Shown piece after piece: positions 3,964-59,032 of a DNA stretch of 64,000 bases. The stretch is from positions 26,223 to 90,222 of the forward strand of contig JAWKXQ010000009.1 in assembly GCA_041396905.1 (NCBI GenBank). The letters run 5' to 3'. A program made the position numbers and the translations under genes. Below the pieces are notes generated by a model that saw nothing but the letters and a program-made list of their open reading frames with translations, had not been told where the DNA came from and made no database searches. The DNA comes from Sphingomonadaceae bacterium. GTDB taxonomy: Bacteria; Pseudomonadota; Alphaproteobacteria; Sphingomonadales; Sphingomonadaceae. The first letter of the stretch is position 1. Each line of letters opens with the position of its first letter.

Positions 3964-3964
3964 C

Positions 3965-5167: not shown

Positions 5168-5180
5168 GGGAATGATCCTC

Positions 5181-5558: not shown

Positions 5559-5563
5559 GATGC

Positions 5564-6022: not shown

Positions 6023-6024
6023 GC

Positions 6025-39563: not shown

Positions 39564-39590
39564 CGCCTGCATCCTCTCATTTTGCATTTC

Positions 39591-39610
39591 TTGCGAGCAA
39601 TGATACGCAA
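39591..39610. promoter_or_regulatory. Variant inverted repeat TTGCGAGCAATGATACGCAA (TTGCG-N10-CGCAA) in a divergent promoter region
   Basis: Shares the TTGCG/CGCAA cores with the main operator but has short spacing. Confidence 0.25.
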
Positions 39611-39657
39611 TTGGAAAATAGAATCCATAATGAATGTGGAAATGCGAAGGGATTGTG

Positions 39658-42128: not shown

Positions 42129-42160
42129 TTGCGTAACACTCTATCATTTCAGTTACGCAA
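42129..42160. promoter_or_regulatory. Perfect operator TTGCGTAAC-N14-GTTACGCAA (equals TTGCGTAA-N16-TTACGCAA)
   Basis: 18/18 palindrome read directly. It fills most of the 68-nt gap between divergent start codons (42105 and 42174). Confidence 0.6.
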
Positions 42161-42173
42161 AGCGAGGTTGAAA

Positions 42174-42665
42174 ATGGATATTGAGCAAAGAATCGCAAGA
42201 ATCGAAGCAGACCGGGCGATCCGGGATCTCAAGATGCGCTATCTCCGCGCGGCCGATGCGAAAGATCCCGACACGATGCGCGATTGCTTTCTGCCCGATG
42301 CCAAAATCCGCTTTGACGGGTTCCCTGATTTTGATGATCGCGACAGCTTCATTGCCATCTATCGCGAGCTGGGTTGTGCGCCCGGCATTTTCGACATTCA
42401 TCAGGGCGGGACGGGTGTTGTTGAATTCGACACTGTCGAACAGGCGCGCGGCTGGTGGCCGCTCTATTTTCACAACATCAATCTGGGGCAGGGCACGCTC
42501 ACGCAGATGGGGGTGGAATATGAGGATATTTACGTCCTGCGCGAAGGCCGCTGGTGGATTGCGCAAAGCGCTTCCAGCCGAAAAAGCTGCCTGATCCATT
42601 CAGTGGACGGGGCCGGCAATGCGCTGGTGCAGGTGATGGGCGAAGCACCGCAGAGCTTTGGCTGA
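42174..42665 (+). CDS. BaiE-like NTF2/SnoaL_4 protein (hydroxysteroid dehydratase candidate)
   Basis: 163 aa. IEQRIARIE...DLKMRYLRAAD parallels the BaiE N-terminus. Tyr23, Asp28 and His76 have the same spacing as BaiE Tyr30/Asp35/His83 as I recall them. GRWWI near the C-terminus versus GQWYI in BaiE. Confidence 0.65.
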   Translation: MDIEQRIARIEADRAIRDLKMRYLRAADAKDPDTMRDCFLPDAKIRFDGFPDFDDRDSFIAIYRELGCAPGIFDIHQGGTGVVEFDTVEQARGWWPLYFHNINLGQGTLTQMGVEYEDIYVLREGRWWIAQSASSRKSCLIHSVDGAGNALVQVMGEAPQSFG

Positions 42666-42677
42666 AGTGCGCCGCGA

Positions 42678-44126
42678 TCAGCTGACCTGATAGGCCTCCC
42701 ACTCAGGCGTTTCCATAGCCTTTTCAAAATCCTGATAAGACCAGGGCCAGGTCATCGGTACCCCTTCCGCGTCGAGATACCAGCTGGTGCAGCCACTGGC
42801 GAAAATCGTTCCGCGGGCGGCTGCGATGCGTTTGTCCTCATAGGCTGCAAAGGCGCTGTCACTGGCGACAACGGCAGTCGCATTGCCAGCTGCAATGGGC
42901 CGGATGAGCTGCTCCACATAAGTCCACTGGATCTCCGCCACTTCGATCAGGGAGAAATTGCCAACCGGCGAAGTCGGGCCATTGAGCATGAACAGATTGG
43001 GGAAATGCGGGATGGATATGGCCATATAGGCGCTGCACCGCGTCGCCCATGCGGTCTCCAGATCGATACCATCTGTGCCCTCAACCACCATGGGCCGCAT
43101 GAAGCGATCTGCATGGTAACCCGTTGCCAGAGCGAGGATATCCAGTTCGTGGAAAGTGCCTTCCCTGTCTCTGATGCCACCCGGTTCGACAGTGTCGATT
43201 CCACACACAACAGTTTCGACATTGGGCAATTGCGCAGCCTCGTAATAGTGGCTGGAATAGATCAGTCGCTTGCAGGCGGCACGATAATCGGGGCGCAATT
43301 TCTCGCGCAGCACCGGATCGGTGACCGATTCCAGATTCTGCAGGCAATAGGTCTCGATTTCCTGCATCGCGTCGGAATCCGGATTCACCAGCCCTTCATT
43401 GAAGCGATAGACCCCGTTCCAGTAGAAATCGTCGTTACGCAGAGCCTCTATGGCGCCGGGATTGTTGCGGAAATTCTCCAGCTCCTCTTCGCTATATTCG
43501 TAATCCGGGATCGGCATGATCCATTGCGGGGAGCGCTGGAAATTGACGATCTGATGGCCATCCAGCCCCAGTTTTGTGGTCATCTGCACCCCGGTTGACC
43601 CGCTGCCGATAATCCCGATGCGCTTGCCAGACAGGTCCAGTTCCGGTTCCCAGCGCGCAGTATGCATGGCCTTGCCCGCAAAGCTCTCCAGCCCCGGAAT
43701 ATCGGGAATCTTGGGGTGGTGGAGCACGCCGGTGGCTGCGATCACAACCTCTGCTTCAGTATGGGTTCCGTCTGCAAATTCCAGCTGCCAGCGGGTTCCG
43801 TCCCACCGGGCGGCAGTGATTTCGCTGTTGAAACGGATCAGCGGCCTGATCCCGAAATCATCGACCACCTTTTCAAAATAGGCCTGAATCTCTGGGCCGG
43901 AGGCGTGGTACCCACTCCATTCCGGGTTCAGAGCAAAGGAAAAGCTGTAATTATGCGCCGGGACATCGCAGCTCAGCCCGGGATAGACATTGTCACGCCA
44001 TGTGCCCCCGATCCGGTCGGCCTTTTCATAGACTGTGACATGGTCATGCCCGGCCTGCCGCAGCTTGATCGCGGCCAAAATGCCGGACATGCCAGCACCA
44101 ATGATCGCAAATCGCGTTGCTGACAT
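42678..44126 (-). CDS. Type I Baeyer-Villiger (flavin-containing) monooxygenase
   Basis: FAIIGAGMSG and GSGSTG Rossmann motifs. The BVMO fingerprint FAGKAMHTARWE (FxGxxxHxxxW). Start chosen at 44126 (GGGAGA SD); the alternative ATG at 44159 lacks an SD. Confidence 0.85.
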   Translation of the reverse strand: MSATRFAIIGAGMSGILAAIKLRQAGHDHVTVYEKADRIGGTWRDNVYPGLSCDVPAHNYSFSFALNPEWSGYHASGPEIQAYFEKVVDDFGIRPLIRFNSEITAARWDGTRWQLEFADGTHTEAEVVIAATGVLHHPKIPDIPGLESFAGKAMHTARWEPELDLSGKRIGIIGSGSTGVQMTTKLGLDGHQIVNFQRSPQWIMPIPDYEYSEEELENFRNNPGAIEALRNDDFYWNGVYRFNEGLVNPDSDAMQEIETYCLQNLESVTDPVLREKLRPDYRAACKRLIYSSHYYEAAQLPNVETVVCGIDTVEPGGIRDREGTFHELDILALATGYHADRFMRPMVVEGTDGIDLETAWATRCSAYMAISIPHFPNLFMLNGPTSPVGNFSLIEVAEIQWTYVEQLIRPIAAGNATAVVASDSAFAAYEDKRIAAARGTIFASGCTSWYLDAEGVPMTWPWSYQDFEKAMETPEWEAYQVS

Positions 44127-44263
44127 TGCGGTTTCTCCCGATATTTCTCCATCAGACATATCGCAAACCGTGAAATGCGCAAATATTTATCCTTTCAATT
44201 TCGCATTTAGCGGTTAGAGTCGCAAAAAACACGATGTTTGCGTCAGCTTGGGAGAGATTCGAC

Positions 44264-45136
44264 ATGGCCGAAGGCAGGGTTGCGCTGGTTACAGGCGCGA
44301 GTCGCGGGGCAGGGGCAGGCATTGCCCGCGGTCTGGGGGAGCTGGGCTATACGGTCTATGTCACCGGGCGGACAAAAACGCCGGGTGATGCGAAGGGCTG
44401 GGATGGCTCGGTGTTGCCCGGCACTTTCGAGGAAACCGCAGCCAAAATCACCGAACTGGGTGGCCGCGGAATAGCGGTGCAATGCGATCATGCCCATGAT
44501 GAGCAGGTCGCGGCGCTGTTTGAACGGATCGCGAAGGATGAGGGCCGGCTGGATATGCTGGTCAATAATGCGACCTATATTCATCATCAGCTGATCGAGA
44601 AGAAACCCTTCTGGGAGAAGGAATTGGACGCAGCCAAAATTCTCGATGTCGGGCTTCGTTCGGCCTATGTTGCCAGCTGGCATGCGGCGAAGATCATGGT
44701 GCCGCAAGGTAGCGGGATGATTGCTTTCGGCTCGTCCTTCGGGGCCAATTGCTACATGCACGGCCCCGCCTATGGCGCGCAGAAAGCGGGCGTCGACAAA
44801 TTTGCGCATGATATGGAGCATGATCTGCGCGGCACCGGCGTGGTCAGCGTTTCGATCTGGATGGGGCCGCTGATTACCGAACGGTCCAAGATCGCCAGCG
44901 AAACCAATCCGGAGCAGTATAAGGATTTCATCGAAACGGCGGAGAATCCTGAATTCACTGCGCATATTCTCGATGCCATCGACCATGCGCCCAACCGCGA
45001 GGAGCTGTCTGGCAGCGTGCTGATCGCGGCGGAGATTGCCAAGGAACTGGGCGTGACCGATCGCGGCAAGGACCGCCCAAGCTATCGCGAGATGCTGGGC
45101 AACCCGCCCTCCAAAAATCCTGCTGCGGTCTATTGA
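44264..45136 (+). CDS. SDR-family oxidoreductase
   Basis: Start trimmed to MAEGRVALVTGASRGAGAGIARGL after GGGAGAG. YGAQKAG. Confidence 0.8.
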   Translation: MAEGRVALVTGASRGAGAGIARGLGELGYTVYVTGRTKTPGDAKGWDGSVLPGTFEETAAKITELGGRGIAVQCDHAHDEQVAALFERIAKDEGRLDMLVNNATYIHHQLIEKKPFWEKELDAAKILDVGLRSAYVASWHAAKIMVPQGSGMIAFGSSFGANCYMHGPAYGAQKAGVDKFAHDMEHDLRGTGVVSVSIWMGPLITERSKIASETNPEQYKDFIETAENPEFTAHILDAIDHAPNREELSGSVLIAAEIAKELGVTDRGKDRPSYREMLGNPPSKNPAAVY

Positions 45137-45139
45137 GGT

Positions 45140-46738
45140 TTGCAGGTGGCCAGCCAGTTTCATCTTGCTGACCTGTTCGAAACGGTCGCAGCCGCCGTGC
45201 CGGATCGACTGGCGATCCGCTCGGATACGGGCGATGTGACCTATGCCGGGCTGGATGAACGGACGGACCGGCTGGCTGCGGCGCTGGCTGATCGCGGTAT
45301 CTGGCGAGGCGACAGAATCGGGCTCTATCTGATGAACGGGCCTGAATATCTCGAAGCCTTCCTTGCGGCGTGCAAGCTGGGGGCGGTGCCATTCAATGTG
45401 AATTACCGCTATGGCGCGGAAGAACTGGAATATCTGTTTGGCAATGCCGGGGCCGCAGTAATATTCCACAATGACGATTTCACCATCATCATGCAGGACC
45501 TGCGGGCGCGCCTGCCGCATATCCGCTTCTCCGTGGTGGTCGGTGATGGTGATGCGGGAGCATCCGAGCGATATGAAGCGCTGATGGAGACGCCTGCCCG
45601 CAAGGGCTTCACCCGCAGCGAAGATGATTTTCTGCTGCAATATACCGGCGGCACCACCGGTATGCCCAAGGGCGTGATGTGGCCGCACAAGGCCTTCTTC
45701 TTCGCCTGTCTTGGGGGTGGTGGCCATTTCCACCCGGCAGGCCAGATTTCCGCGCCGGATGAGATCGCCGGGCGCGCAACGGAGGGCTACCAGCTATCCA
45801 TGTTCACAATCGCCCCGCTGATGCATGGCGCGGCGATCTGGGCAGCGTGGTCGGGCCTGCTGGGCGGGCTGACTCTGGTGCTGGATCCGATGCGCAGCTT
45901 TGACGCGGAAGCGATCTGGGATCGTGTTTCCAAATTCAGCGTCAATGTGGTCCAGATCGTGGGTGATGCTATGGCGCAGCCGCTGCATCAGGCCATGCAG
46001 GACAATCCCGGTCGCTGGCAGGTGCAGCAAGTGGTCAATTTCGGATCGGGTGGCGCGGTCTTTTCGCAGCATCTCAAGGATGCGATCAGCGCGCTCTTGC
46101 CCAATGCGCGGATTACTGACGGGATGGGGACATCCGAAGGCGGCATCTCGGGCATGGCCGAGCCGAGCGCGGATGGCGTAATGCGCCTGCCCGCCCATGA
46201 TGATCAGTGGGTGATTGTGGAGGATCGGTTGGCGCAGCCGGGTGAGACCGGCCTGCTGGGCCGCGCCGGGCATATCCCGGTCGGCTATTACAATGATCCG
46301 GCCAAGACTGCTGAGGTATTCCGCACTGTGGCGGGCAAGCTGTGGACCTTGTCCGGCGATGCCGCTCGGCTGGAGGCAGATGGCACTATCACCATGTTCG
46401 GGCGCGGTTCCACCTGCATCAATACGGGCGGAGAGAAAGTCTTCCCGGAAGAGGTGGAAGCAGCGTTGCGCGCGCATCCCTCCATCCGCGACACAGTGGT
46501 GCTGGGCCGCCCGGATCAGAAATGGGGCGAGGCGGTGGTTGCGCTTGTCTCTCTGATGAAGGGGGCGAGCTTGCCTGAACAGGCCGAATTGCGGGAATTT
46601 CTGGATGGCAAGCTGGCGGGCTACAAATGCCCCAAGGCCGTGCTCGCCGTGGATGAAGTGCGCCGGTCGCCTGCGGGCAAGCAGGATTATTCATGGGCAC
46701 GGCAAGTGCTGGAAGAATGGGTGGAGGAGGCGGCATGA
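45140..46738 (+). CDS. AMP-dependent acyl-CoA synthetase (steroid-acid CoA ligase candidate)
   Basis: LLQYTGGTTGMPKGVMW, GMGTSEGG and SGDAARLEADGTITMFGRGSTCINTGGEKVFPEEVE. The start is non-ATG and uncertain (TTG at 45140 or GTG at 45146 after GAGG). Confidence 0.85.
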   Translation: MQVASQFHLADLFETVAAAVPDRLAIRSDTGDVTYAGLDERTDRLAAALADRGIWRGDRIGLYLMNGPEYLEAFLAACKLGAVPFNVNYRYGAEELEYLFGNAGAAVIFHNDDFTIIMQDLRARLPHIRFSVVVGDGDAGASERYEALMETPARKGFTRSEDDFLLQYTGGTTGMPKGVMWPHKAFFFACLGGGGHFHPAGQISAPDEIAGRATEGYQLSMFTIAPLMHGAAIWAAWSGLLGGLTLVLDPMRSFDAEAIWDRVSKFSVNVVQIVGDAMAQPLHQAMQDNPGRWQVQQVVNFGSGGAVFSQHLKDAISALLPNARITDGMGTSEGGISGMAEPSADGVMRLPAHDDQWVIVEDRLAQPGETGLLGRAGHIPVGYYNDPAKTAEVFRTVAGKLWTLSGDAARLEADGTITMFGRGSTCINTGGEKVFPEEVEAALRAHPSIRDTVVLGRPDQKWGEAVVALVSLMKGASLPEQAELREFLDGKLAGYKCPKAVLAVDEVRRSPAGKQDYSWARQVLEEWVEEAA

Positions 46739-48369
46739 CAGCCACTGACCCGGTGTTGCAGGCCGTCACCGCGGCTGGATCGCCCTTTGAAATCGCCGAG
46801 ATCGACGGGCTGCGCTGCTTTGCCAATGCGCCCGCAAATCTGGACCAGCTGATTGAAAGCGCGAAGCGCCATGGCGATGCGACCTTTATCGTCGATGGCG
46901 ATACACGGCTGAGCTTTGCCGAAACCTTCGCTCGCCGCGATGCTCTGGCGGCGATGCTGGCAATTGCACCGGGTGACCGCGTGGCATTGTGTATGCGTAA
47001 CCGCGCAGAATGGCTGATCGGCTATCTTGCCATACTCCGCGCAGGTGGAGTGGCGGTGCTGGTCAATAGCCGTGGTTCCCCTGAAGAACTGGACCGGATG
47101 GTGGAACAGGTCGGTGCGACAATCGTGCTGACCGATGCACATCGGCACGAATTGTTGCGCGAAGGGAACTTCATCGGCAGGATCATAGATGCCGATGATT
47201 TCCCACCACCGGGCGCGAGCTTTGATCCTCCTCCACCGGCAGGGCCGAACGATCCGGCAACGATCCTGTTCACCTCTGGCACGACCGGGCAGGTGAAGGG
47301 CGCGGTGCTGAGCCACCGCAACCTGATCACCGGGATCATGAGCGTGCAGATGGCCGGGCTGATGGTGTTGCACAACACTGCCAATTCCATGAATATGCCG
47401 GTCGAGCAGCTGATCGGAATGATCCCGCAACAGGCAGTGCTGCTGGTCTATCCGCTGTTCCATATTTCAGGCCTTGGCGCTGCGTTTCTTTCGCCCATGC
47501 TGGCGGGTTCAAAAGTGGTCATCATGCCCAAATGGGATGCGCAGGATGCCGCCCGGATCATCGCGGAAGAGAAGATCACGATGTTCTCTGCCGTGCCCAC
47601 CATGCTGTGGGACATGCTGCACCGCGCCAAGCTGGCCGATGCCGACCTTTCCAGCCTGCGCAATATCGGAACCGGCGGGCAGGCGCTGCCGATCAACTTG
47701 CTGGACGAGATGCGCGCGGCCTGCCCGCAGGCGGTGATGGGCACCGGCTATGGCATGACCGAGACTGCCGGCAGTGTTGCCATGGCTGTGGGCGAGGACT
47801 GGATGCGCAACCGCGCCGCTGCGGGCCGCGTGCTGTCGCTGGTCGATGTGCGGATAGAGGACGAGCAGGGTAATGTCCTTCCGGTCGGGCAGGCGGGCGA
47901 GATCGTGGTGCGCGGGGCACAGGTCATGCTCGGATATTGGGACATGCCGGACGAGACTGCTGCCGTTCTGGGTGCTGATGGCTGGCTGCGCACTGGCGAT
48001 GTCGGTGTGCTGGACGAGGAAGGCTACCTTCTCATCGTTGATCGCAAGAAAGACATGGTGATTTCTGGCGGCGAGAATATCTATTGCGCGGAAGTAGAGC
48101 GCGTTCTCTCGGAAATTCCCGAGGTCAGCGAATGCGCCACTTTCGGTATTCCTGACGAGCGGCTGGGCGAATTGCTGGTGGCGGTTGTACGCGCCAGCGG
48201 GATCACGGCAGATGCAGTGAAGCTCCATGTCGGCGAACGGCTCGCCCGCTACAAGGCACCGGGTCATGTGGTGTTCACGGACCAGCCCCTGCCGCGCAAC
48301 CATCTCGACAAGGTTGACAAGATCGCACTCCGGGGCCGCTGGCCCGAACTGGCAAAGGAAATCGCCTGA
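46735..48369 (+). CDS. AMP-dependent acyl-CoA synthetase (second paralogue)
   Basis: ATGA overlap with the previous ligase. ILFTSGTTGQVKGAVLSH, GYGMTET, TGDVGVLDEEGYLLIVDRKKDMVISGGENIY. Confidence 0.9.
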   Translation: MTATDPVLQAVTAAGSPFEIAEIDGLRCFANAPANLDQLIESAKRHGDATFIVDGDTRLSFAETFARRDALAAMLAIAPGDRVALCMRNRAEWLIGYLAILRAGGVAVLVNSRGSPEELDRMVEQVGATIVLTDAHRHELLREGNFIGRIIDADDFPPPGASFDPPPPAGPNDPATILFTSGTTGQVKGAVLSHRNLITGIMSVQMAGLMVLHNTANSMNMPVEQLIGMIPQQAVLLVYPLFHISGLGAAFLSPMLAGSKVVIMPKWDAQDAARIIAEEKITMFSAVPTMLWDMLHRAKLADADLSSLRNIGTGGQALPINLLDEMRAACPQAVMGTGYGMTETAGSVAMAVGEDWMRNRAAAGRVLSLVDVRIEDEQGNVLPVGQAGEIVVRGAQVMLGYWDMPDETAAVLGADGWLRTGDVGVLDEEGYLLIVDRKKDMVISGGENIYCAEVERVLSEIPEVSECATFGIPDERLGELLVAVVRASGITADAVKLHVGERLARYKAPGHVVFTDQPLPRNHLDKVDKIALRGRWPELAKEIA

Positions 48370-49235
48370 TGGCTATGCCCACCGACATCAAGATTATCGA
48401 CTGCATGCTTGGCATTCCCGAAGCAGAGGATCGGGGGGACTGGTTCGCCAGCTTCCGCCCGCTGATCAAGGATCAGGAAACGCTGCAGCAGTTTTCCATG
48501 CCTGCACAATATATGTTCAAGGACATTCCGCAGAGCGGCAAGCAGGAGGATTATACCGCCTGGGTGGTCGAGCAGATGGACGCGCATAATGTTGAGCGCG
48601 CGCTGGTTGGCTGGAACGACAATGACACATCGCGCCGCGCGAAGGAGAATTACCCGGATCGCTTTTTCTTCGATCTGCCCTTTGATCCCAATGGCGGGGT
48701 CGCTGAAATCCGACGCATCCGGCGCATTCATGAAGAGGTTGGCATCTCGGCGCTAAGCTGCTTCCCGGCTGGCACCCTGCCGCAGGTGGCGATTGACCAC
48801 AAATATATGTTCCCCTTCTACGCGCTGGCATGCGAGCTGGATATTCCGGTCTGCATCAATGCCGGTGTACCGGGGCCGCGCATTCCGATGGATACGCAGA
48901 AGGTCGAACGGATCGACGAGGTGTGCTGGTACTTCCCCGAGCTGAAGCTGGTGATGCGGCACGGTGCGGAACCTTGGGAGGATCTGGCTGTGAAGCTGAT
49001 GATCAAATATCCCAATCTCTATTATTCGACCAGCGCCTTTGCCCCCAAACATTACCCCAAGGCGATCATCGATTACGCAAACACGCGCGGCGCGGACAAG
49101 ATCATCTATGCTGGCTATTTCCCCATGGGATTGAGCCTGGAGCGGATCATGCGCGACATGGCCAATGTTCCCTTAAAGGATGAAGTCTGGCCCAAATTCC
49201 TGCGCGAAAACGCGATCAAGGTGTTCGGCCTCTAA
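48369..49235 (+). CDS. Amidohydrolase_2-family metal-dependent hydrolase/decarboxylase (ACMSD/LigW/LigI-like TIM barrel)
   Basis: 288 aa, 1-nt overlap with the ligase stop. Family-level resemblance (IIDCMLGIP..., HGAEPW, YAGYFP). No specific function can be inferred. Confidence 0.65.
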   Translation: MAMPTDIKIIDCMLGIPEAEDRGDWFASFRPLIKDQETLQQFSMPAQYMFKDIPQSGKQEDYTAWVVEQMDAHNVERALVGWNDNDTSRRAKENYPDRFFFDLPFDPNGGVAEIRRIRRIHEEVGISALSCFPAGTLPQVAIDHKYMFPFYALACELDIPVCINAGVPGPRIPMDTQKVERIDEVCWYFPELKLVMRHGAEPWEDLAVKLMIKYPNLYYSTSAFAPKHYPKAIIDYANTRGADKIIYAGYFPMGLSLERIMRDMANVPLKDEVWPKFLRENAIKVFGL

Positions 49236-49350
49236 GGCCACCGGAGCCGGGAAGTCTGCTCCGTACCAAACTGTCACGGGCGCGGGAGACAACCCCCCGC
49301 ATCCCTTGATCCCCGGTCGGATTGGGCCGGGTACTGAATGGAGAGAAACC

Positions 49351-50457
49351 ATGGCTGATGGTGATAACAGCAAGGCAACTGATGCGCGCACGGCACCGGT
49401 GCTGGTGTGGCAGATGCTCGAAAAGATGAGCAAGGATGAGCTGCTCGAATGGCGACGCAGCGAGCCCAAGAACCGCGCCACCGTGGAAGAGCGCAATCTG
49501 GATGGGCCGTTCCCTTATGGCTGGTATCCGGCGATGTTGTCAGCCGATCTCGCCGTGGGTGAGGTCAAGCCGCTGCGCTATTTCTCCACCGATCTGGTGA
49601 TCTGGCGCGGCGAAGATGGCCAGCCGCGCATGCTCGATGCCTATTGCAAGCATCTGGGCGCGCATATGGGCTATGGCGGCAAGGTGACGGGCAACAATAT
49701 CGAATGCCCCTTCCACAGCTGGCAGTATAATGGCGAGGGCGTGGTGGAAGACATCCCCTATGCCAAGCGTATCCCGCCGCAGGTGAAGCGCCCCTGTGAC
49801 ATTCAGTGGCCAGTATGCGAGGCCAATCGCTGGATCTGGTTCTGGTATCACCCCGATGGTGTCGCCCCGATGTGGGAAGTGGAGCATCTGCCCGAAGCGT
49901 CTGATCCTGAATGGACCGATTATGACGTGTTCGAATGGGATGTATGGGGCAACCTGCAGAACATGGCCGAAAACGGCGTGGACGCAGCCCATTTCAAATA
50001 TATCCATGGTGCTGCCGACATGCCCGACTATGAATTTGACTGGGGCGAAGGCAATCATCTGCGCGGTGCGCGCCTGTTCGTGAAGATGGGGACGCCACGC
50101 GGCGTGGTCGATGGCGAAATTGCCTATCGCAATGTCGGGCCGGGTCAGAGCTACACCCGCTTCACCGGTATTTGCGAGACATTACTCGTCGCTTGCATCA
50201 CGCCGATCGACAAGGATCATGCCGTTTCCCGCTTCTGCTTCACGCAGCCCAAGGCGCAGAAGGAAGGCCCCGCAGGCGGCGCTGCGCGCGCCATCATCAA
50301 GGATATTTGCAAGCAATTCGATCAGGACAAGGTCGTGTGGGACCGCCAGAAATATCTGCCCAATGCTCTGGTTTGCGATGGTGACGGCCCGATCGGTAAA
50401 TTCCGCAGCTGGTACAGCCAGTTCTACCAGACCAAGCAAGCTGAAGCAGCGGAATGA
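49351..50457 (+). CDS. KshA-family Rieske [2Fe-2S] non-heme-iron oxygenase with an N-terminal extension
   Basis: Start at the ATG after GGAGAGAAACC. CKHLGAH...CPFHSW Rieske motif and ENGVDAAHFKYIHG iron motif as in KshA. About 45 extra N-terminal residues relative to the paralogue at 55145. Confidence 0.8.
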   Translation: MADGDNSKATDARTAPVLVWQMLEKMSKDELLEWRRSEPKNRATVEERNLDGPFPYGWYPAMLSADLAVGEVKPLRYFSTDLVIWRGEDGQPRMLDAYCKHLGAHMGYGGKVTGNNIECPFHSWQYNGEGVVEDIPYAKRIPPQVKRPCDIQWPVCEANRWIWFWYHPDGVAPMWEVEHLPEASDPEWTDYDVFEWDVWGNLQNMAENGVDAAHFKYIHGAADMPDYEFDWGEGNHLRGARLFVKMGTPRGVVDGEIAYRNVGPGQSYTRFTGICETLLVACITPIDKDHAVSRFCFTQPKAQKEGPAGGAARAIIKDICKQFDQDKVVWDRQKYLPNALVCDGDGPIGKFRSWYSQFYQTKQAEAAE

Positions 50458-51983
50458 AGGCGACACGGCGCGAGGCCCTGAAAGGGGCCGCAGCTACCGC
50501 GATTATCGCGGGGGGAGGCATGACAGGCATGGCAAAGGCAGCAGCGATTTCTGACGACGACTATCTGGCGCAGGATGCGCTGGGTCTGGCCGAGCTGGTG
50601 CGCAAGCGCGAGGTTTCGGCAAGTGAATTGCTGGAAATGGCGATTGAACGGGCCAGCAAGCAGGATGCAAAGCTCAATTTCCTCGCTCAGGAAATCTACG
50701 ATTATGGGCGTGAGAAGATTGCGCAGGGTCTGCCAGAGGGGCCGTTTACCGGCGTGCCTTTCCTGGAAAAAGACTTGCACATGCACATTTCCGGGGTCCG
50801 TTCCGGGCAGGGCAGCCGCCTGTATGATGACTATGTGCCGGACTTCACCTCTGAACTGGTCAAGCGGCATGAAGCGGCAGGCCTTGTCATTTTCGGCAAG
50901 ACCACGACACCCGAATTCGGCCTGACCGGAACGACGGAGAGCCTTGCCGAAGGGCCGACCCGCAATCCTTGGGATGTGACCCGCAGCAGCGGCGGTTCCA
51001 GCGGCGGCGCGAGCAGTGCGGTTGCCTCTGGCGTGATACCTCTGGCCCATGCCAGCGATGGCGGCGGCTCTATCCGCATTCCGGCCAGCACTTGCGGGCT
51101 GTTCGGGCTGAAGCCCAGCCGCGGGCGCGTGCCCATGGGCCCGCTGCGGACGGAGGGGTGGGGCGGCATGTCCACCAATGGCGCGCTGAGCCGCAGCGTG
51201 CGCGATAGCGCCGCGCTGCTGGACGCAACGCATGGGCCAGAGCTAGGCTCGCGCTATTCCGCACCCACGCCAGACGGAACCTTCCTCTCGCAAGTCACTC
51301 GCGAACCGGGAAGCCTGCGTATCGCGCTGATGCTGGAACCGATCTCCGGCGCGCCGGTCGATCCTGAAGTGGTTGAGGCAACAAGGCAGGCTGCCAAGCT
51401 GTGCGAAAGCCTGGGCCATCATGTTGAGGAAGCGTCGCTGAAAATCGATGCGGCCCGCATGGGTCAGGCCAATTTCGCGCTAATCTCCACCGCGCTGGTG
51501 GTCGATATTGATGCGAGGGCCAAAGCGGCAGGTGTCGATGTCGGGCCCGACGTAATCGAAAAGATGACGATGGGTTTCTACCAGTTCGGCAAACAGGTGC
51601 CGGGAACCGCTGTCGCATCGGCCAATAATCTGATGCAGGAAATTGCCGTCACGGTCGCCCGATTCATGGCGAATTATGACGTTATCCTGTCACCGGTGCT
51701 TGCGAGCCCTCCAGCAAAGCTGGGTGTTTACGATCTCGACAAGGATGATTTTGCGGCCTGGGGGGCTGCGGTGGGTGCCTATGTGCCGTTTACCGGCCTG
51801 TTCAACGCTACGGGCCAGCCGAGCATGTCGGTGCCGTTGGGCATGTCGAAAGGTAACCTGCCCATCGGGTCCATGTTTACTGGCCGCTATGGCGACGAAG
51901 CGACGCTGCTGCGCCTCGCGGGACAATTGGAACGCGCTGCACCGTGGTTTGACCGCTTGCCGCAGCTCGCAAGGGAGATTTGA
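50454..51983 (+). CDS. Amidase-signature (GatA-like) amidase with a twin-arginine export signal
   Basis: ATGA overlap with the Rieske gene. MKATRREALKGAAATAIIAGG...AKAAA Tat-type leader. GGSSGGASSAVASG...DGGGSIRIPAS amidase signature. Confidence 0.85.
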   Translation: MKATRREALKGAAATAIIAGGGMTGMAKAAAISDDDYLAQDALGLAELVRKREVSASELLEMAIERASKQDAKLNFLAQEIYDYGREKIAQGLPEGPFTGVPFLEKDLHMHISGVRSGQGSRLYDDYVPDFTSELVKRHEAAGLVIFGKTTTPEFGLTGTTESLAEGPTRNPWDVTRSSGGSSGGASSAVASGVIPLAHASDGGGSIRIPASTCGLFGLKPSRGRVPMGPLRTEGWGGMSTNGALSRSVRDSAALLDATHGPELGSRYSAPTPDGTFLSQVTREPGSLRIALMLEPISGAPVDPEVVEATRQAAKLCESLGHHVEEASLKIDAARMGQANFALISTALVVDIDARAKAAGVDVGPDVIEKMTMGFYQFGKQVPGTAVASANNLMQEIAVTVARFMANYDVILSPVLASPPAKLGVYDLDKDDFAAWGAAVGAYVPFTGLFNATGQPSMSVPLGMSKGNLPIGSMFTGRYGDEATLLRLAGQLERAAPWFDRLPQLAREI

Positions 51984-51986
51984 AGG

Positions 51987-52745
51987 ATGCGGGGATTATC
52001 GGGACAAGTCGGCATCGTTGCCGGGGGTGGGCGCGGGATTGGCGCTGCAACCGCCAAACGGCTGGCAGAAGAAGGCGCCTGCGTCGTCATCGGCGACATT
52101 ATGGGTGACTGGGCGCGCGAGGTCGCGACAGAGATCGAAGGCGCCGGCGGGAAGGCCATCGGGGTCGATCTGGATGGCACTTCGCCGGAAAGCCAGCAGG
52201 CCATCGTGCAGGCGGCACTGGATAATTACGGCACGCTGGATTTCTATCACTCCAACCTCGCCGGTGGGACGGAAGGCGATATTGATGCGCTCAATTGTCC
52301 GCTGGAAGTGCTGGACAAGAGTTGGGCGATCAATGCCAAGAGCCACTTCATTGCCACCCAAGCAGCACTGCCAGTAATGCTGGAGCGCGGTGGTGGGGCA
52401 ATGATCTATACCTCATCCGGTGCTGCCTCTGGCGCGAGCCCCTGGCAGGTTGCCTATCCCATGACCAAGAATGCGATCCACGCTTTGGCGCGCCATGTGG
52501 CCAGTAAATGGGGTAAGAAGGGCATTCGTGCCAATGTGATCTGCCCCGGCGTGGTGCTGACCGAAGCAGTCAGGATTCACATGACGGAAGAGCAGGTAGA
52601 GCAGGCGCTGCGCCGTGTCCCGCATGAGCGCTTGGGCGATCCGGCCGATATTGCAGCGGCAATCGCATTCCTTGCCTCGCAGGATGGGGCATGGGTCAAT
52701 GGGCAGGTCTGGCATGTCAATGGCGGCATGCAGATGCGGGATTGA
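51987..52745 (+). CDS. SDR-family oxidoreductase
   Basis: 252 aa. VGIVAGGGRGIGAATA, YPMTKNA. Confidence 0.85.
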   Translation: MRGLSGQVGIVAGGGRGIGAATAKRLAEEGACVVIGDIMGDWAREVATEIEGAGGKAIGVDLDGTSPESQQAIVQAALDNYGTLDFYHSNLAGGTEGDIDALNCPLEVLDKSWAINAKSHFIATQAALPVMLERGGGAMIYTSSGAASGASPWQVAYPMTKNAIHALARHVASKWGKKGIRANVICPGVVLTEAVRIHMTEEQVEQALRRVPHERLGDPADIAAAIAFLASQDGAWVNGQVWHVNGGMQMRD

Positions 52746-52750
52746 GGCCA

Positions 52751-54013
52751 ATGACAGGCGCTATCGGGCAAAAGCTGCCAAATCGCTGGGTCGTGCTGCT
52801 GCTATTGCTGGGCATTGCGATCTTCAATCATGCGGATCGTTTTTTGCTCGCGGGGCTAGTCGATCCGATCAAGCACGAATTTGATGTGTCCGACAGCTTT
52901 ATGGGGCTGCTGATGGGGCCCGCCTTTGCGGTGTTCTATTCCAGCCTCGCAATTCCGATTGCGATCTATGCTGATCGTGCCAACCGTGTGCGGATCATTG
53001 TTGCGGGTTGCGTGATCTGGAGCTTGTTCACGATCCTGTCTGGCTATGCCGCTTCGCCGACGCAACTGGCTCTGGCCCGGGTAGGAGTTGGTGTGGGCGA
53101 GGCTGCTTTTCAGGCTCCGGCCTATTCGCTGATCGCCGCCTATTTCGCGCCGGAACAGCGGGGCAAGGCCTTCGCAGTGATCGCTTTGTCTACCTATTTC
53201 GGCCAGATGCTGGGCTATGGCGCAGGCCCCGCAATCGCAGAAGTGCAGGATTGGCGCTTTGCCTTCAAGCTATTCGGTCTCATTGGCCTGGGCATTATCG
53301 CCTTGGCTTGGCTGATCATTCGTGAACCAGCGCGCGGACAGGCCGCGACCGTCAGAGCCGCTTTTCTGCCGCTGGTCGCCCGTACTTTCAGGCTGGCCAG
53401 CTATCGCGGGATGATGTTTGGCATGGGGCTGGGTGTCCTGTCCGGCATTGCATTCGGCTTCTGGGGCCCAACCCTGTTTTCGCGCAGTTTCGATATGACC
53501 ATGGCAGAGGCTGGCTCTGCCTTTGGTGGCGCGTTTGTGATTCCCGGCATGCTGGGCGCAATTATGTTCGGTATCATCGCTGATAAGGTGGCCAGGCGCG
53601 GTTATGGCAGCATGCTGATCCTTTCTGCAATTGCATTGGCAGCTGCGACAGCAGCGGTGATTGGCGCAAGCTGGGCGAGCTCGCTTGGCGTTGCGCTGGC
53701 ATGGGCAGTGCCTGCAGGCCTGTTCGGGGGCGGCTGGGCTGTGGGAATTTATGCCGGGTTGCAATATATCCTGCCGGACAATCTGCGCGCGACAGGGACG
53801 GCAATTGCCATGCTGGCCGTGAACCTGCTGGGATATGTCATTGGCCCCTGGCTCGCGGGTGCCTTGAGCGATCAGTTTGGCGAAGGGGCGCTGGGGCTGC
53901 AACAAGCGCTCAGCGTAGTGCTCCCGATCGGTTTTGTCGGGACTTTGTTGTTGTGGCGCGCAGCCAAGTCGCTGGAAGCAGATCGCGACACGCTGCAAGC
54001 GCAAGAGAAATGA
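52751..54013 (+). CDS. MFS transporter
   Basis: Start trimmed to MTGAIGQKLPNRWVVLLLLL. About 12 hydrophobic segments, with a DRxNR-like loop (YADRANRVRII). Confidence 0.85.
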   Translation: MTGAIGQKLPNRWVVLLLLLGIAIFNHADRFLLAGLVDPIKHEFDVSDSFMGLLMGPAFAVFYSSLAIPIAIYADRANRVRIIVAGCVIWSLFTILSGYAASPTQLALARVGVGVGEAAFQAPAYSLIAAYFAPEQRGKAFAVIALSTYFGQMLGYGAGPAIAEVQDWRFAFKLFGLIGLGIIALAWLIIREPARGQAATVRAAFLPLVARTFRLASYRGMMFGMGLGVLSGIAFGFWGPTLFSRSFDMTMAEAGSAFGGAFVIPGMLGAIMFGIIADKVARRGYGSMLILSAIALAAATAAVIGASWASSLGVALAWAVPAGLFGGGWAVGIYAGLQYILPDNLRATGTAIAMLAVNLLGYVIGPWLAGALSDQFGEGALGLQQALSVVLPIGFVGTLLLWRAAKSLEADRDTLQAQEK

Positions 54014-54076
54014 TGAGCGGGACATTCTGCAAAGACGGCTTCACAGCCAGCCCTTACTGGCGCTAAGGACTCGGCC

Positions 54077-54556
54077 ATGAACGGAAATTTCGAAATCGAC
54101 GATATTGACGTATCCATCATCGCCGAATTGCGCGAGGATGGACGGGCCAGCAACCAGCAGATCGCCAGCAAGCTCGGGCTGACGGCGGCCACAGTCTCTG
54201 CGCGGATCAAGCGGATGGAAGATGCCGATAAATTGCGCGTGGTTGCTGTGTCGGACTTCAGTGCCCATGGCTATAATCTGCTGATTCAGGTGGCAGTGGA
54301 AGTTGATGGCCGCGCCTCATCCGAAGTCGCGGCAGATCTGGCCAAGTTGCCGGAAGTCTTCGCAGTGCATCAGGTGACCGGGCGGTATGACATCGACATG
54401 CTGATCGCGGTGCGTGACTATGACGAATTGAAGCATGTGATGCTGGAGCGGCTCGCCGGGATTCGGGGGATCCGTTCCATGCTGCCTGCGATTGCGACCG
54501 CAATCCCCAAATACAAATTCGATGTTGCCCCGATAGAAGCGAGGGATGCGTCATGA
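54077..54556 (+). CDS. Lrp/AsnC-family transcriptional regulator
   Basis: 159 aa. IDDIDVSIIAELREDGRASNQQIASKLGLTAATVSARIKRME HTH followed by a RAM-like domain. Confidence 0.9.
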   Translation: MNGNFEIDDIDVSIIAELREDGRASNQQIASKLGLTAATVSARIKRMEDADKLRVVAVSDFSAHGYNLLIQVAVEVDGRASSEVAADLAKLPEVFAVHQVTGRYDIDMLIAVRDYDELKHVMLERLAGIRGIRSMLPAIATAIPKYKFDVAPIEARDAS

Positions 54557-55020
54557 GCCAGGTGCAGATTGATGAGCTGGATCGCCAGCTGATTGACATC
54601 CTGTCAAAGGATGCCCGCATCTCCAACCGCAAGATCGCGGCCGATCTGGGCGTGACCGAAGGCACTGTGCGCGGGCGCATCCGGCGGTTGCAGAATGACC
54701 GGCTGATTGCCTTCACAGCGATCACCAGCTTCGAACTGGCGGATAATACCAAGATGGCCTTTATCGGCGTGCAGGCCGACTTCGGACGTGTGAACGAGAT
54801 TGCAGACACCATTGCCAAGCTGCCCGCCATCGACGCCGTGATGATCACCATGGGCCGCTTCAACATTCAGGCATTTTGCCTGTTCAGCGAGCTGGACAGG
54901 CTGCACGAAATCGCTTCGGAAGAGATCCTTTCCATTGATGGCGTGCACCATGTGGAAAGCTCGATTGCGGTGAAGACGCTCAAATATAATGCCCGGATCG
55001 TGAAGATCACAGATAGCTGA
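54553..55020 (+). CDS. Lrp/AsnC-family transcriptional regulator (second, overlapping paralogue)
   Basis: ATGA overlap with the previous gene. IDELDRQLIDILSKDARISNRKIAADLGVTEGTVRGRIRRLQ. Confidence 0.9.
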   Translation: MSQVQIDELDRQLIDILSKDARISNRKIAADLGVTEGTVRGRIRRLQNDRLIAFTAITSFELADNTKMAFIGVQADFGRVNEIADTIAKLPAIDAVMITMGRFNIQAFCLFSELDRLHEIASEEILSIDGVHHVESSIAVKTLKYNARIVKITDS

Positions 55021-55027
55021 TCGCAAT

Positions 55028-55059
55028 TTGCGTAACGTCTAATGCAATAGATTACGCAT
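55028..55059. promoter_or_regulatory. Operator TTGCGTAA-N16-TTACGCAT (15/16) between the AsnC pair and kshA
   Basis: Read directly. Begins 8 nt after the AsnC stop, 86 nt upstream of the kshA ATG. Confidence 0.55.
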
Positions 55060-55144
55060 TGGCTGCATTGAATGCCTTGCCATCCTTGGTTTGCGATGGC
55101 ACAAGGCTCCCAATCTATGAAAACGTGGATTCGGGAGAGACGCG

Positions 55145-56224
55145 ATGGCAACCACTGCAGATTACAAGCTGGGTGAATTCACCTATCCGCGCGGCTGGTT
55201 CATGATCGGCATGTCGGGAGATGCAACCAAAACGCCGCTGGCAGTGCGTTTCTTTGGCGAAGATCTGGTTTTGTATCGCGGCGAATCCGGGCGTGCCTTT
55301 CTGGTGGAAGCCTATTGCCCGCATATGGGTACGCATCTGGCCATGAACACCACCTCTTACGTGGTGAAGGATGGCGAGCATGTGGAGGGTGATAATATTC
55401 GCTGCCCCTATCATGGCTGGCGGTTTGGGCCGGATGGCAGCTGCAACGACATCCCCTATTCCCCCGCATCGCCGCCCAAGCGGGCTTGCCTGAAGACATT
55501 CCCGCTGACCGAACGGGCCGGGGCGCTGTGGGCATGGTATGACGCCGAAGGGGGCGAGCCGGATTACGAACTGCCTGAATTTGAAGGCTATGGCGAAGAT
55601 GCCTGGGTCAACTGGACTCTGTCCTGTCTGGGTGAGTTGGACAGCCATCCGCAGGAAGTGGTCGATAATATTGCTGACAAGGGGCATCTCACCCCCGTCC
55701 ATGGCTCGATCAATATGGAATTGTTCGAGAACGAATTTGAAGACCATATCAGCCGCCAGATCCTGTCTGCCGGGCACAAGACGCTGGCTGCCGATGGTGG
55801 CGAGCCGATGACCAATTACACCTGGTACACTGGCCCCGGCATACTGCAGTCCAAAATGGTGGGTGAATTCCCCTCGCTGATGCTGATCGCGCATACGCCG
55901 ATCGAGGATGGCCGGGTGAAGGTGTGGTACGGCCTCAGCGTCAAGGTTGCGAATGACAAACCGACCGAGGAAGATGTCGCGACGGCCAAGCAGTATGAGC
56001 AGGCCGGGATCGAGGCCTTTGCGCAAGATTTCGAGATCTGGGCAAACAAGCGCCCTTGTCTCAATCCGATGATGGTGAAAGGCGATGGCCCGTTCGACAA
56101 GGTGCGCATCTGGTATCGCCAGTTCTTCAACCCTCGGGCGCGGGCAGGCGAGTTCCAGAGCCGCGTCAATGGCCGCTACGTGATTCAGGGCACCAATCGC
56201 GACCCATGGGATGAGGTTGCCTGA
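55145..56224 (+). CDS. kshA: 3-ketosteroid 9alpha-hydroxylase oxygenase-like Rieske protein
   Basis: 359 aa. YPRGWFMIG, CPHMGTH...CPYHGWRF Rieske motif, DNIADKGHLTPVHG iron motif. Collinear with the remembered KshA. Confidence 0.7.
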   Translation: MATTADYKLGEFTYPRGWFMIGMSGDATKTPLAVRFFGEDLVLYRGESGRAFLVEAYCPHMGTHLAMNTTSYVVKDGEHVEGDNIRCPYHGWRFGPDGSCNDIPYSPASPPKRACLKTFPLTERAGALWAWYDAEGGEPDYELPEFEGYGEDAWVNWTLSCLGELDSHPQEVVDNIADKGHLTPVHGSINMELFENEFEDHISRQILSAGHKTLAADGGEPMTNYTWYTGPGILQSKMVGEFPSLMLIAHTPIEDGRVKVWYGLSVKVANDKPTEEDVATAKQYEQAGIEAFAQDFEIWANKRPCLNPMMVKGDGPFDKVRIWYRQFFNPRARAGEFQSRVNGRYVIQGTNRDPWDEVA

Positions 56225-56240
56225 ATCCGGCATCCTGTGG

Positions 56241-56257
56241 CATTTCAGTTACGCAAA
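56241..56257. promoter_or_regulatory. Orphan operator half-site; a 17-mer CATTTCAGTTACGCAAA identical to 42145-42161
   Basis: Exact 17-nt identity read directly. No matching left half at the expected -24 position. Followed by TTGCGTTT-N14-ATGCGCAA (56266-56295). Confidence 0.35.
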
Positions 56258-56364
56258 ACTGCATTTGCGTTTTGCAATTCCTTTTAAATGCGCAATTCAG
56301 ATTGACTTTCGTTACGATTTTGTCGAATGACCGTTGGCAATAAACGGTTTCATGGGAGGAGAGC

Positions 56365-58914: not shown

Positions 58915-58938
58915 ACTTCAGGCATCACTAACTGGGAT

Positions 58939-58968
58939 GGGCGGATCTAGCCACAATTAGATCCGCCC
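58939..58968 (+). terminator. Stem-loop GGGCGGATCTA-N8-TAGATCCGCCC downstream of the receptor gene (no clear U-tract)
   Basis: 11-bp perfect stem read directly, 25 nt after the stop codon. Confidence 0.45.
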
Positions 58969-59032
58969 GTCCTAGCAGTCCGATTAATTGCGCATGATGC
59001 CTTCCGCCCAAAACTAGGCATGGAGATCAGGA

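Follow-up and report, generated by a model that had tools for sequence, protein, structure and literature searches.

In Sphingobium sp. Chol11, gene cluster 2 has been described as the putative bile-salt side-chain cluster, and a cluster on pNL2 of Novosphingobium aromaticivorans DSM 12444 was equated with it (Feller et al. 2021). Cluster 2 encodes the ligase SclA, Nov2c229 (a "putative amidase"), the Rieske protein Nov2c228, the amidase Nov2c227 (Bsa) with a twin-arginine translocation (Tat) signal, a short-chain dehydrogenase/reductase (SDR), and the major facilitator superfamily (MFS) transporter Nov2c225. Further members are the acyl-CoA dehydrogenase (ACAD) Nov2c221/222, two hotdog proteins, and the TonB-dependent receptor Nov2c232. 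The subject of the present analysis is a run of genes comparable to this cluster in 64,000 nucleotides of DNA from a Sphingomonadaceae bacterium (assembly GCA_041396905.1, contig JAWKXQ010000009.1, positions 26,223 to 90,222 of the forward strand). This whole stretch is called the window, and coordinates are given within it.

Several proteins of the Chol11 cluster have been studied experimentally. Bsa cleaves both glyco- and taurocholate, Nov2c229 showed no bile-salt amidase activity, SclA forms the C24-CoA ester, Nov2c225 is more abundant on bile salts, and Nov2c232 is strongly induced. Nov2c228 is produced only on bile salts that bear a side chain. It adds an extra hydroxyl group at an unknown position other than C9 and does not open ring B, which is cleaved by three other KshA homologues of Chol11 (10.1101/2021.06.24.449856). 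When Nov2c228 was present in P. stutzeri without Nov2c229, dead-end hydroxylated products with a C3 side chain were formed; the essential ACAD Scd4AB acts at C22 (delta-22), the scd4A mutant grows on the acid with a C3 side chain, the hotdog genes are dispensable, and Nov2c229 was considered "an interesting candidate" (10.1101/2021.06.24.449856). Homologues of known side-chain hydratases, aldolases, and thiolases are absent from Chol11, and the authors of that work suggested a non-aldolytic, non-thiolytic route for the side chain. In Caenibius tardaugens, the cluster bsd I (EGO55_16295-16335; amidohydrolase, monooxygenase, Scd4AB, SclA, and MaoC) is induced by cholate, the role of the monooxygenase being unknown (Ibero et al. 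2026). Deletion of an igr-like aldolase operon in the same species left growth on cholate unchanged. The mode of side-chain cleavage in sphingomonads was still called largely unknown in 2025, in agreement with an earlier, sequence-only reading of the window, which regarded it as not fully resolved. Sphingomonads occur in abundance in soil, freshwater, and wastewater, and how they remove the C5 side chain is a recognized open question.

The genes from 44234 to 55020, together with the transport genes that follow, most probably represent the sphingomonad operon for bile-salt deconjugation and side-chain removal; a probability of about 0.8 is assigned to this reading from gene content and order. 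The match is direct to the pNL2 cluster (SARO_RS18865-RS18885), in which the ligase, the amidohydrolase (SARO_RS18870), the Rieske protein, and the Tat-amidase follow in the same order and are 60%, 80%, 67%, and 63% identical to their window counterparts. The pNL2 amidase starts with MKATRREAL, as does the window amidase, and the Rieske gene of pNL2 is preceded by the same leader RNA motif as that of the window. Through pNL2, the match would extend to Chol11 cluster 2 (nov2c225-231) and to bsd I of C. tardaugens. Sphingobium-type loci display the order TonB receptor, SDR, ligase, amidohydrolase, Rieske, amidase, SDR, MFS, AsnC, AsnC, ACAD pair, and two small open reading frames (ORFs). This order reproduces nov2c232 down to nov2c219, with the two small ORFs situated where Chol11 has its hotdog genes. 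The combination of genes, regarded as unusual in the sequence-only reading, is therefore that of a described and conserved cluster, a published candidate already, and the interpretation given in that reading rediscovers a partly characterized system. The processing of amide-conjugated bile salts, which had been offered only as an alternative, agrees with the presence of an orthologue of the conjugate-cleaving Bsa. New here are the definition of a three-gene core, the loss of canonical residues in the amidohydrolase-fold protein, and a leader RNA specific to the Rieske gene. Also new is the recognition of the extra ligase as FadD19-type, co-occurring with an alkylsulfatase-like gene.

Profile scans of the listed ORFs with Pfam and NCBIfam, of which Pfam covered about 75 ORFs of the window, returned the domain content and the single (+) strand previously described. 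The overlapping junctions were also recovered, namely ATGA at 46735 and 50454 and TGATG at 48367-48371. The same-strand run begins at 44234, one gene ahead of the start at 45140 given in the sequence-only reading, and it goes on after the AsnC pair with a second KshA, a TonB-dependent receptor, and an alkylsulfatase-like gene of metallo-beta-lactamase (MBL) fold. The three central genes of the run are ligase 2 (46735-48369, +; AMP-binding, 288 bits), by position an SclA-type steroid-C24 CoA ligase; the gene of the Amidohydro_2-fold protein, here termed AH2 (48369-49235, +; Pfam PF04909), at the position of Nov2c229; and that of a KshA-like Rieske monooxygenase (49351-50457, +; Rieske and KshA_C domains), at the position of Nov2c228.

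By means of the Rieske protein, 80 genome loci of about 21 kb each were retrieved, and each window gene was mapped onto them; presence was counted in those 52 loci that extend 8 kb or more to either side. Ligase 2 and AH2 are each present in 51 of the 52. In 51 loci the two genes and the Rieske gene are adjacent, in the same order and on the same strand, an arrangement that is far beyond chance. AH2 adjoins the Rieske gene in 77 of all 80 loci, and the spacing from ligase 2, where present, to AH2 is always 2-48 nt. The upstream SDR, directly 5' of the ligase or ligases, was found in 37 of 52 loci and the downstream SDR in 33; amidase and MFS transporter occur in 26 each, the AsnC pair in 25, ligase 1 in 22, the second KshA (after the regulators) in 17, and the sulfatase-like gene in 15. 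These counts define ligase 2, AH2, and the Rieske gene as the core, the genes for deconjugation and transport being accessory. Steroid genes (KstD-like, old yellow enzyme, SDRs, and the second KshA) are syntenic with the module across dozens of genomes, and only 1 of the 80 loci has a hydratase or thiolase gene within 10 kb of it. With the metagenome contigs included, the comparison of about 80 genomes and 29 contigs narrows the candidates for side-chain cleavage to three co-inherited genes.

The closest relatives of the window are a Blastomonas metagenome-assembled genome (MAG), Erythrobacter alti, and a MAG labelled Marinomonas, with protein identities of 65-88%. The last of these (JBDVRS010000006.1) is the locus most like the window overall, yet its gene content and identities are sphingomonad-like, and its label or binning is doubtful. 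Orthologues of the Rieske gene with about 65% identity are also carried by 11 tomato-root Sphingobium megaplasmids (TomTYG/TomMM strains). Tomato-root-associated Sphingobium are mentioned in one report as harbouring genes for the catabolism of steroidal glycoalkaloids. Provided that the strains are the same, the cluster may be used there for other steroid-like substrates.

Within the module, AH2 is conserved best: its median identity across loci is 79%, compared with 67% for the Rieske protein, and about 150 columns are invariant among 32 homologues. Its family is small, comprising 199 representatives at E <= 1e-30 among 1.84 billion. The PF04909 match spans only residues 68-288. The AlphaFold model, with a predicted local distance difference test score (pLDDT) of 72 and a predicted template modelling score (pTM) of 0.75, adopts the (beta/alpha)8 amidohydrolase fold, and Foldseek matches at probability 1.0 were 3irs, 2dvt, 4qrn, and ACMSD. 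The expectation, in the sequence-only reading, of a metal-dependent decarboxylase, lactonase, or hydratase does not hold. Strand 1 reads IIDCML and lacks HxH (or ExH), only D11 of this strand is invariant across the BB4693-like clade, and HxH is missing throughout that clade, down to 31% identity. In a profile alignment with LigW, the His of ...LYIH on strand 5 is aligned with N164 (...LLN164), and the Asp of AMDYP on strand 8 with Y250 (AGY250FP). A strand-1 HxH (or ExH) and the strand-5 His and strand-8 Asp (metal ligand or general base) are canonical for the metal-dependent Amidohydrolase_2 enzymes (ACMSD, LigW, gamma-RSD, LigJ, LigY, and LigI).

Both by sequence (E 3e-14; profile 1.5e-17) and by fold (Foldseek TM 0.68), the closest protein to AH2 is BB4693 of Bordetella bronchiseptica (PDB 3irs/3k4w), which likewise has no strand-8 Asp (GTAYP compared with AGYFP). 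BB4693 is only 23% identical to AH2 and is an uncharacterized TIM-barrel protein, so no function can be transferred from it. The next relatives after 3irs are the non-oxidative decarboxylases gamma-RSD, LigW, and ACMSD. Classification of AH2 from its sequence or fold, whether as lactonase, decarboxylase, or hydratase, was rejected, since the canonical residues are missing and the closest structure is uncharacterized. The loss of these residues also leaves the labels "amidase" and "metal-dependent decarboxylase" unjustified. Judging by these positions, the function of AH2 is not transferable by homology, and the protein cannot work like its annotated relatives. In NCBIfam, no curated equivalog model was reached by AH2, and a literature search on Nov2c229 and BB4693 found nothing apart from the 2021 papers. 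Distant AH2-like genes on high-GC metagenome fragments (P0269, P0284, P0294, P0304, and P0366) adjoin genes for a KshA-like Rieske protein, a P450, an AMP-ligase, a CaiB-like CoA-transferase, and another Amidohydro_2 protein. Apparent fusions of AH2 with neighbouring genes among the database representatives were dismissed as frameshifted low-quality translations, usable as adjacency hints only. With the frameshifted sequences taken as such a hint, a link of the family to the chemistry of acyl-CoA compounds and oxygenases may exist outside the sphingomonads as well.

For the Rieske protein, which had been described as extended, the start was placed at 49351, giving 368 amino acids in place of the 425 of the longest ORF. 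The 120 best homologues measure 324-391 amino acids, nearly all 360-380; they cover about 84% of the 425-residue ORF and align from its Met58 (M58). A Shine-Dalgarno-like GGAGAG stands ahead of the ATG at 49351, many relatives have an in-frame stop 3-30 nt 5' of the conserved ATG, and the pNL2 orthologue SARO_RS18880 is annotated at 1107 bp, the same length as the window gene. An N-terminal extension is ruled out by the homologue lengths, the Shine-Dalgarno and ATG, and the in-frame stops, and is an artefact of ORF calling. In the homologue alignment, the CxH...CxxH motif and the His/His/Asp columns of the mononuclear iron are invariant. Pfam scores are 70 bits for Rieske and 109 bits for KshA_C, and the best PDB matches are KshA chains (2zyl, 4qck, and 4qdc; E 2e-41 to 3e-34). 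The protein thus shares with KshA the motifs for the Rieske [2Fe-2S] cluster and the mononuclear iron, along with the KshA_C domain; the Chol11 enzyme at its cluster position differs from KshA in hydroxylating elsewhere than at C9 and leaving ring B unopened. No NCBIfam equivalog model was reached by it, and the database names of its homologues are generic ("phenylpropionate dioxygenase-like"). A second KshA-family Rieske oxygenase (55145-56224, +) scores 200 bits with KshA_C, compared with 109 bits for the module protein. Being closer to KshA, this copy is a candidate for the true 9alpha-hydroxylase.

Between the stop of AH2 and the start of the Rieske gene, 115 nt (49236-49350) are more conserved than the flanking genes. 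This leader, with an RNA core at 49240-49308 (+; covariance-model match 69.7 bits), contains in order a hairpin P1 with the stem (G)GGAGC / GCUCC(C) and an invariant 10-nt loop CGGGAAGUCU, a variable linker, a hairpin P2, often a third GC-rich hairpin, AAGGAGA, and the ATG. The stem of P2 varies freely in sequence yet stays paired, and its loop GAGACAACCCC is invariant. In an unfitted MAFFT alignment, 86% of the cells are paired, compared with 44-54% in slid controls, and the covariation score is 0.231 compared with at most 0.112 in these controls; the observed score was reached by none of 500 shuffles. The covariance-model alignment of 57 distinct sequences gave 86.7% paired cells (slid controls, at most 48%), and covariation scores in model-fitted alignments were 0.43-0.46 (0.457 on the 57 sequences), with slid controls at or below 0.124. 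Compensatory changes were observed in all 10 pairs of P2 and in two pairs of P1, and the frequent G-U pairs point to the sense strand. The two invariant loops are mutually complementary (GGG/CCC and GUCU/AGAC around an AA/AA mismatch), their invariance precluding a covariation test.

With the covariance model, exactly one copy of this RNA was detected in the window and likewise in each of 41 loci out of 81 (one of them at 11825-11927 of locus L081). The copy always stands directly ahead of the Rieske gene, and the 1.5 Mb searched contain no other. Scanning metagenome contigs for the pattern yielded 29 further copies, all at the same position. All 71 instances, including that of the window, precede the Rieske gene, or a contig ends at the place that this gene would occupy. 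On pNL2, an SDR gene separates AH2 and Rieske, and the leader stays with the Rieske gene; in loci without the RNA, the Rieske start falls 9-42 nt past the AH2 stop. A comparison of the window with Rfam 15 gave no match at the gathering score, and for the leader the only matches at E <= 10 were far below it (10.4 bits compared with 50 for the window stretch; 16-17 compared with 33-47 for another locus, L034). Sequestration of the Shine-Dalgarno sequence by the 3' half of P1, predicted in the minimum free energy fold of the window, was discarded as a conserved feature, being found in only 6 of 59 leaders. The covariation and the placement indicate a new candidate cis-regulatory RNA specific to the Rieske gene, whose trigger may be a metabolite, a protein, or processing and which provides a new starting point for work on regulation. 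Scanning 44000-59100 for promoters and terminators was uninformative, the counts equalling the shuffled expectation.

The two ligases are of different kinds. Ligase 1 (45140-46738, +), a FadD19-type acyl-CoA synthetase, scores 593.6 bits on NF005863/PRK07798, above the curated cut-off of 543; the domain PRK07798 is carried by FadD19, the sterol-C26 ligase (PMC11201411). By this match, ligase 1 is FadD19-type and an accessory gene that is not part of the Chol11-type cluster, Chol11 being listed without a second side-chain ligase. For ligase 2, the best named model is CasG (NF052580), at 368.9 bits against a cut-off of 750, so that it is no CasG equivalog; this agrees with the description of SclA, in one account of that enzyme, as a novel steroid ligase. 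Neither ligase 2 nor the amidase reached a curated equivalog model of NCBIfam. The alkylsulfatase-like gene (59033-60460, +; Lactamase_B and Alkyl_sulf_dimr) is found near the module in 15 of 22 loci with ligase 1 and in none of 30 without it, which suggests that ligase 1, the first SDR, and this gene form an accessory set. Such a set probably makes further substrates accessible, either sulfated bile compounds or side chains of other lengths.

The first gene of the run encodes the SDR of 300 amino acids (44234-45136, +; Pfam adh_short), its stop lying 3 nt ahead of ligase 1. Downstream of the Rieske gene, the amidase-signature enzyme (50454-51983, +; Pfam Amidase, 281 bits, full length) occupies the position of Bsa (Nov2c227). 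Its N-terminus MKATRREALKGAAATAIIAGGG (MKATRREALK...) is a twin-arginine-type signal with the motif TRREALK, in keeping with the earlier designation as a Tat-amidase. It is followed by an SDR of 252 amino acids (51987-52745, +; adh_short_C2) at the position of Nov2c226, a putative hydroxysteroid dehydrogenase for which the 7alpha-hydroxysteroid dehydrogenase models of NCBIfam score below their cut-offs, and by the MFS transporter (52751-54013, +; MFS_1, 140 bits) at the position of Nov2c225. Two Lrp/AsnC regulators (54077-55020, +; HTH_AsnC and AsnC_trans_reg), whose genes overlap by ATGA, and beyond the second KshA the TonB-dependent receptor (56365-58914, +; Plug and beta-barrel domains) complete the run. 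An Amidohydro_3 protein of 572 amino acids (37300-39018, -) is conserved 5' of the module, in 14 of the 52 loci, and tends to replace the Tat-amidase (11 loci with Amidohydro_3 only, 3 with both, and 23 with the amidase only). By this distribution it could be an alternative deconjugating enzyme.

As noted in the sequence-only reading, the window also holds genes for other parts of steroid catabolism. HsaA/C/D/E/F/G, for rings A/B, lie at 18-25 kb, the C/D-ring genes include IpdAB, an EchA20-like gene, an NMO/IpdC-like gene, and a FadD3-family ligase, and KstD-like genes are found as well. Its statement that DUF35 proteins and SCP2-thiolase-type aldolases are lacking also holds, since none occurs among the roughly 75 Pfam-scanned ORFs of the window, ORFs below 100 amino acids not having been scanned exhaustively. 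Neither a second side-chain ACAD nor an aldehyde dehydrogenase was found in the module or the window. The only candidate for Scd4AB within the window is a heteromeric ACAD pair (6804-9085, -) of the clade acting on methylhexahydroindanedione propionate (HIP), the HIP-ACAD clade. Its subunits are 85% and 72% identical to the module-adjacent pair of Sphingobium vermicomposti, and 85% identity is shared with the pNL2 ACAD. A Scd4AB-like pair adjoins the module in 12 of 80 loci. In the window, the pair belongs to an operon (with 2431-6807) that encodes a FadD3-family ligase, a thiolase, a ketosteroid isomerase-like protein, MaoC, and a PRK07831 SDR and is of the C/D-ring (HIP) type. In one locus (L078), the whole FadD3/thiolase/MaoC ACAD operon is directly upstream of the module. 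The pair is thus a candidate for Scd4AB, for the HIP-ACAD, or for both.

Several further genes of the window were recorded. A TauD-family taurine dioxygenase (54-923, +) at the window edge, beside a flavin reductase, fits the use of taurine freed from taurocholate; taurine use is reportedly not possible for Chol11. Four SnoaL_4 (NTF2-like) proteins are encoded at 9944-10399 (-), 27096-27566 (+), 30102-30740 (+), and 42129-42665 (+). The same fold is that of the Hsh2-type 7-hydroxysteroid dehydratases, which belong to the delta-4,6 variant of the pathway. A flavin monooxygenase gene resembling Baeyer-Villiger monooxygenases (42678-44159, -) diverges from the operon, its best named model being PtlE, far below the cut-off, and with a nearby Abhydrolase_3 esterase (40444-41373, +) it might form a Baeyer-Villiger and esterase pair for keto-steroids. 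A side-chain route of this kind was rejected, since among the 52 loci the monooxygenase gene is near the module in only 1 and the esterase gene in only 2. Finally, a 602-residue protein (60497-62305, +) has no Pfam match and no counterpart in the 80 loci, a 258-residue protein (39015-39791, -) without a Pfam match has counterparts in 10 of 52, and a 226-residue protein (36623-37303, +) with a faint EthD match has counterparts in 25 of 52.

From these components a pathway can be proposed. Conjugated bile salts would pass the outer membrane through the TonB-dependent receptor, and the Tat-exported amidase would remove glycine or taurine in the periplasm, as shown for the Chol11 enzyme. The free bile salt would be imported by the MFS transporter and converted by ligase 2 into the C24-CoA thioester, a reaction shown for SclA. 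The delta-22 double bond would then be introduced by a HIP-type heteromeric ACAD, a step shown for Scd4AB, for which the pair at 6804-9085 is a candidate in the window. The Rieske protein would hydroxylate the steroid away from C9 (hydroxylation as such being shown for Nov2c228), and the site may be C17, a tertiary C-H analogous to the C9 target of KshA. AH2 might then help to break C17-C20 and so yield a 17-ketosteroid: a C3-CoA side chain would leave as propionyl-CoA by plain retro-aldol cleavage, and the delta-22 C5-CoA ester as pentenoyl-CoA by a vinylogous one. The SDRs would handle ring hydroxyls, and the AsnC pair and the structured leader RNA would control expression. This scheme would explain four published observations, namely why the delta-22 double bond is required, why the route can do without a hydratase, an aldolase, a thiolase, or another ACAD, why the scd4A mutant grows on the acid with a C3 side chain, and why Nov2c228 yields hydroxylated C3-side-chain dead-ends in P. 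stutzeri. The idea of a non-beta-oxidative side-chain route, put forward in the sequence-only reading, fits the published work on SclA and Nov2c228 and the non-aldolytic, non-thiolytic proposal; the mechanism itself is unproven, both here and elsewhere. The specific chemistry of C17 hydroxylation with AH2-aided C17-C20 cleavage is put forward tentatively and is to be regarded as doubtful. A long shot is the wider idea that the triad performs a new, O2-dependent cutting of the side chain, through Rieske hydroxylation at C17 and (vinylogous) retro-aldol cleavage by an amidohydrolase fold without a metal site, and that the leader is in addition a riboswitch for a pathway metabolite, such as a steroid-CoA ester. 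A steroid-sensing leader would be, to our knowledge, the first natural steroid-responsive riboswitch.

Several points weigh against the side-chain reading. The identity of the module in this organism is deduced from sequence and gene order, and orthology to the Chol11 proteins is transitive, through pNL2 and gene order. The module has no gene for a reductase that would serve the Rieske protein. With HxH, the strand-5 His, and the strand-8 Asp all lost, a catalytic role of AH2 is not assured, and its closest structure, 3irs, is of no known function. The C17 position and the retro-aldol step are inferred here and were speculation on the part of the Chol11 authors. Moreover, the ACAD pair is 36 kb from the module, in a HIP-type operon with MaoC, SDR, and thiolase, so that conventional beta-oxidation of the first C2 unit could still take place. 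In an opposing explanation, the module only imports, deconjugates, and CoA-activates bile salts, the Rieske protein is a KshA paralogue for B-ring opening, and the side chain is cut by beta-oxidation or aldolase genes elsewhere. The Rieske protein does belong to the KshA family, and a MaoC hydratase, an SDR, and two true thiolases stand beside the Scd4AB-like pair of the window; the position of the corresponding MaoC/thiolase operon in L078 and the MaoC gene beside sclA in C. tardaugens are in accordance with the same view. However, the FadD3-family and PRK07831 matches tie this operon to C/D-ring (HIP) degradation, and hydratase or thiolase genes are near the module in a single locus. Nov2c228 left the B ring uncleaved where three other Chol11 homologues cleaved it, a better KshA is available at 55145-56224 (200 bits), and loss of the igr-like aldolase operon had no effect on the growth of C. 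tardaugens on cholate. This explanation is consequently judged quite improbable.

A different objection concerns AH2 alone, which could be a non-catalytic partner (assembly factor, substrate delivery, or scaffold) of the Rieske protein or of the CoA ligase, cleavage being due to the oxygenase or to an unidentified enzyme. The loss of all three canonical metal or catalytic positions speaks for such a role, as do the constant adjacency to the ligase and Rieske genes and the lack of bile-salt amidase activity in Nov2c229, while the 79% median identity and the roughly 150 invariant columns would fit an interaction surface as well as an active site. Yet invariant polar residues (D11, D102, H121, H144, R197, H198, E201, S220-S222, K227, and Y250) lie in or near the predicted barrel strands, and Nov2c228 gave hydroxylated products in a heterologous host without Nov2c229. 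Metal-independent enzymes also occur in the amidohydrolase fold, LigI being an example, which counts against a non-catalytic protein. A partner role is on the whole unlikely, although it is to be taken seriously. It is barely credible that the substrate of the module is no steroid but, for example, an aromatic amide or acid, and that the module lies among steroid genes by chance: the generic names of the Rieske homologues and the failure of ligase 2, AH2, Rieske, and amidase to reach any curated equivalog model would allow it, but the steroid-gene synteny is kept across dozens of genomes, the Chol11 enzymes at the corresponding positions have been studied experimentally, and the C. tardaugens cluster is induced by cholate. 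For related clusters, both steroid-specific induction and a steroid phenotype of deletion mutants have been reported.

The known side-chain hydratases, aldolases, and thiolases are not found in or beside the module, either in the window or in 79 of the 80 related loci. A new C-C cleavage chemistry, if true, would be of interest to steroid biotechnology, in which side-chain removal is the key industrial step. The FadD19-type ligase and sulfatase set may extend the pathway to other bile compounds. With the canonical pathways of P. stutzeri Chol1 (StdA1/2, Scd1AB/2AB, Shy1/2, Sal1/2, and Sad) and of actinobacteria (Cas/ChsH-Ltp2), the proposed route would have CoA activation, alpha,beta-desaturation at C22, and a 17-ketosteroid product in common. 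Their MaoC-DUF35 hydratase and SCP2-thiolase-type aldolase were not found in the window; what the module offers instead is a Rieske oxygenase together with an Amidohydro_2-fold protein.

Among the sphingomonad clusters, bsd I of C. tardaugens resembles the window in that the amidohydrolase adjoins the monooxygenase in the company of SclA. It differs in having Scd4AB directly after the monooxygenase, a MaoC hydratase and an alpha/beta hydrolase after SclA, a TetR regulator instead of the AsnC pair, and an amidase encoded elsewhere. The pNL2 cluster has an SDR between amidohydrolase and Rieske protein, regulators and ACAD on the opposite strand, and no second ligase. Chol11 cluster 2 shows the same families and order as the window from the SDR 5' of the ligase to the regulators (nov2c231 to 223), and both, in a setting of steroid catabolism, combine a Tat-amidase, a KshA-like Rieske protein, and an Amidohydro_2 protein in a cluster free of Shy/Sal-type genes. 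In contrast to Chol11, the ACAD pair and the hotdog genes are not beside the window module, the upstream SDR is of a different type, and a second KshA and the alkylsulfatase-like gene lie 3' of the regulators. The leader RNA is present in the window and absent from the Sphingobium-type loci examined. To the known cluster, the lineage of the window adds a FadD19-type ligase, an extra SDR, and an association with a sulfatase.

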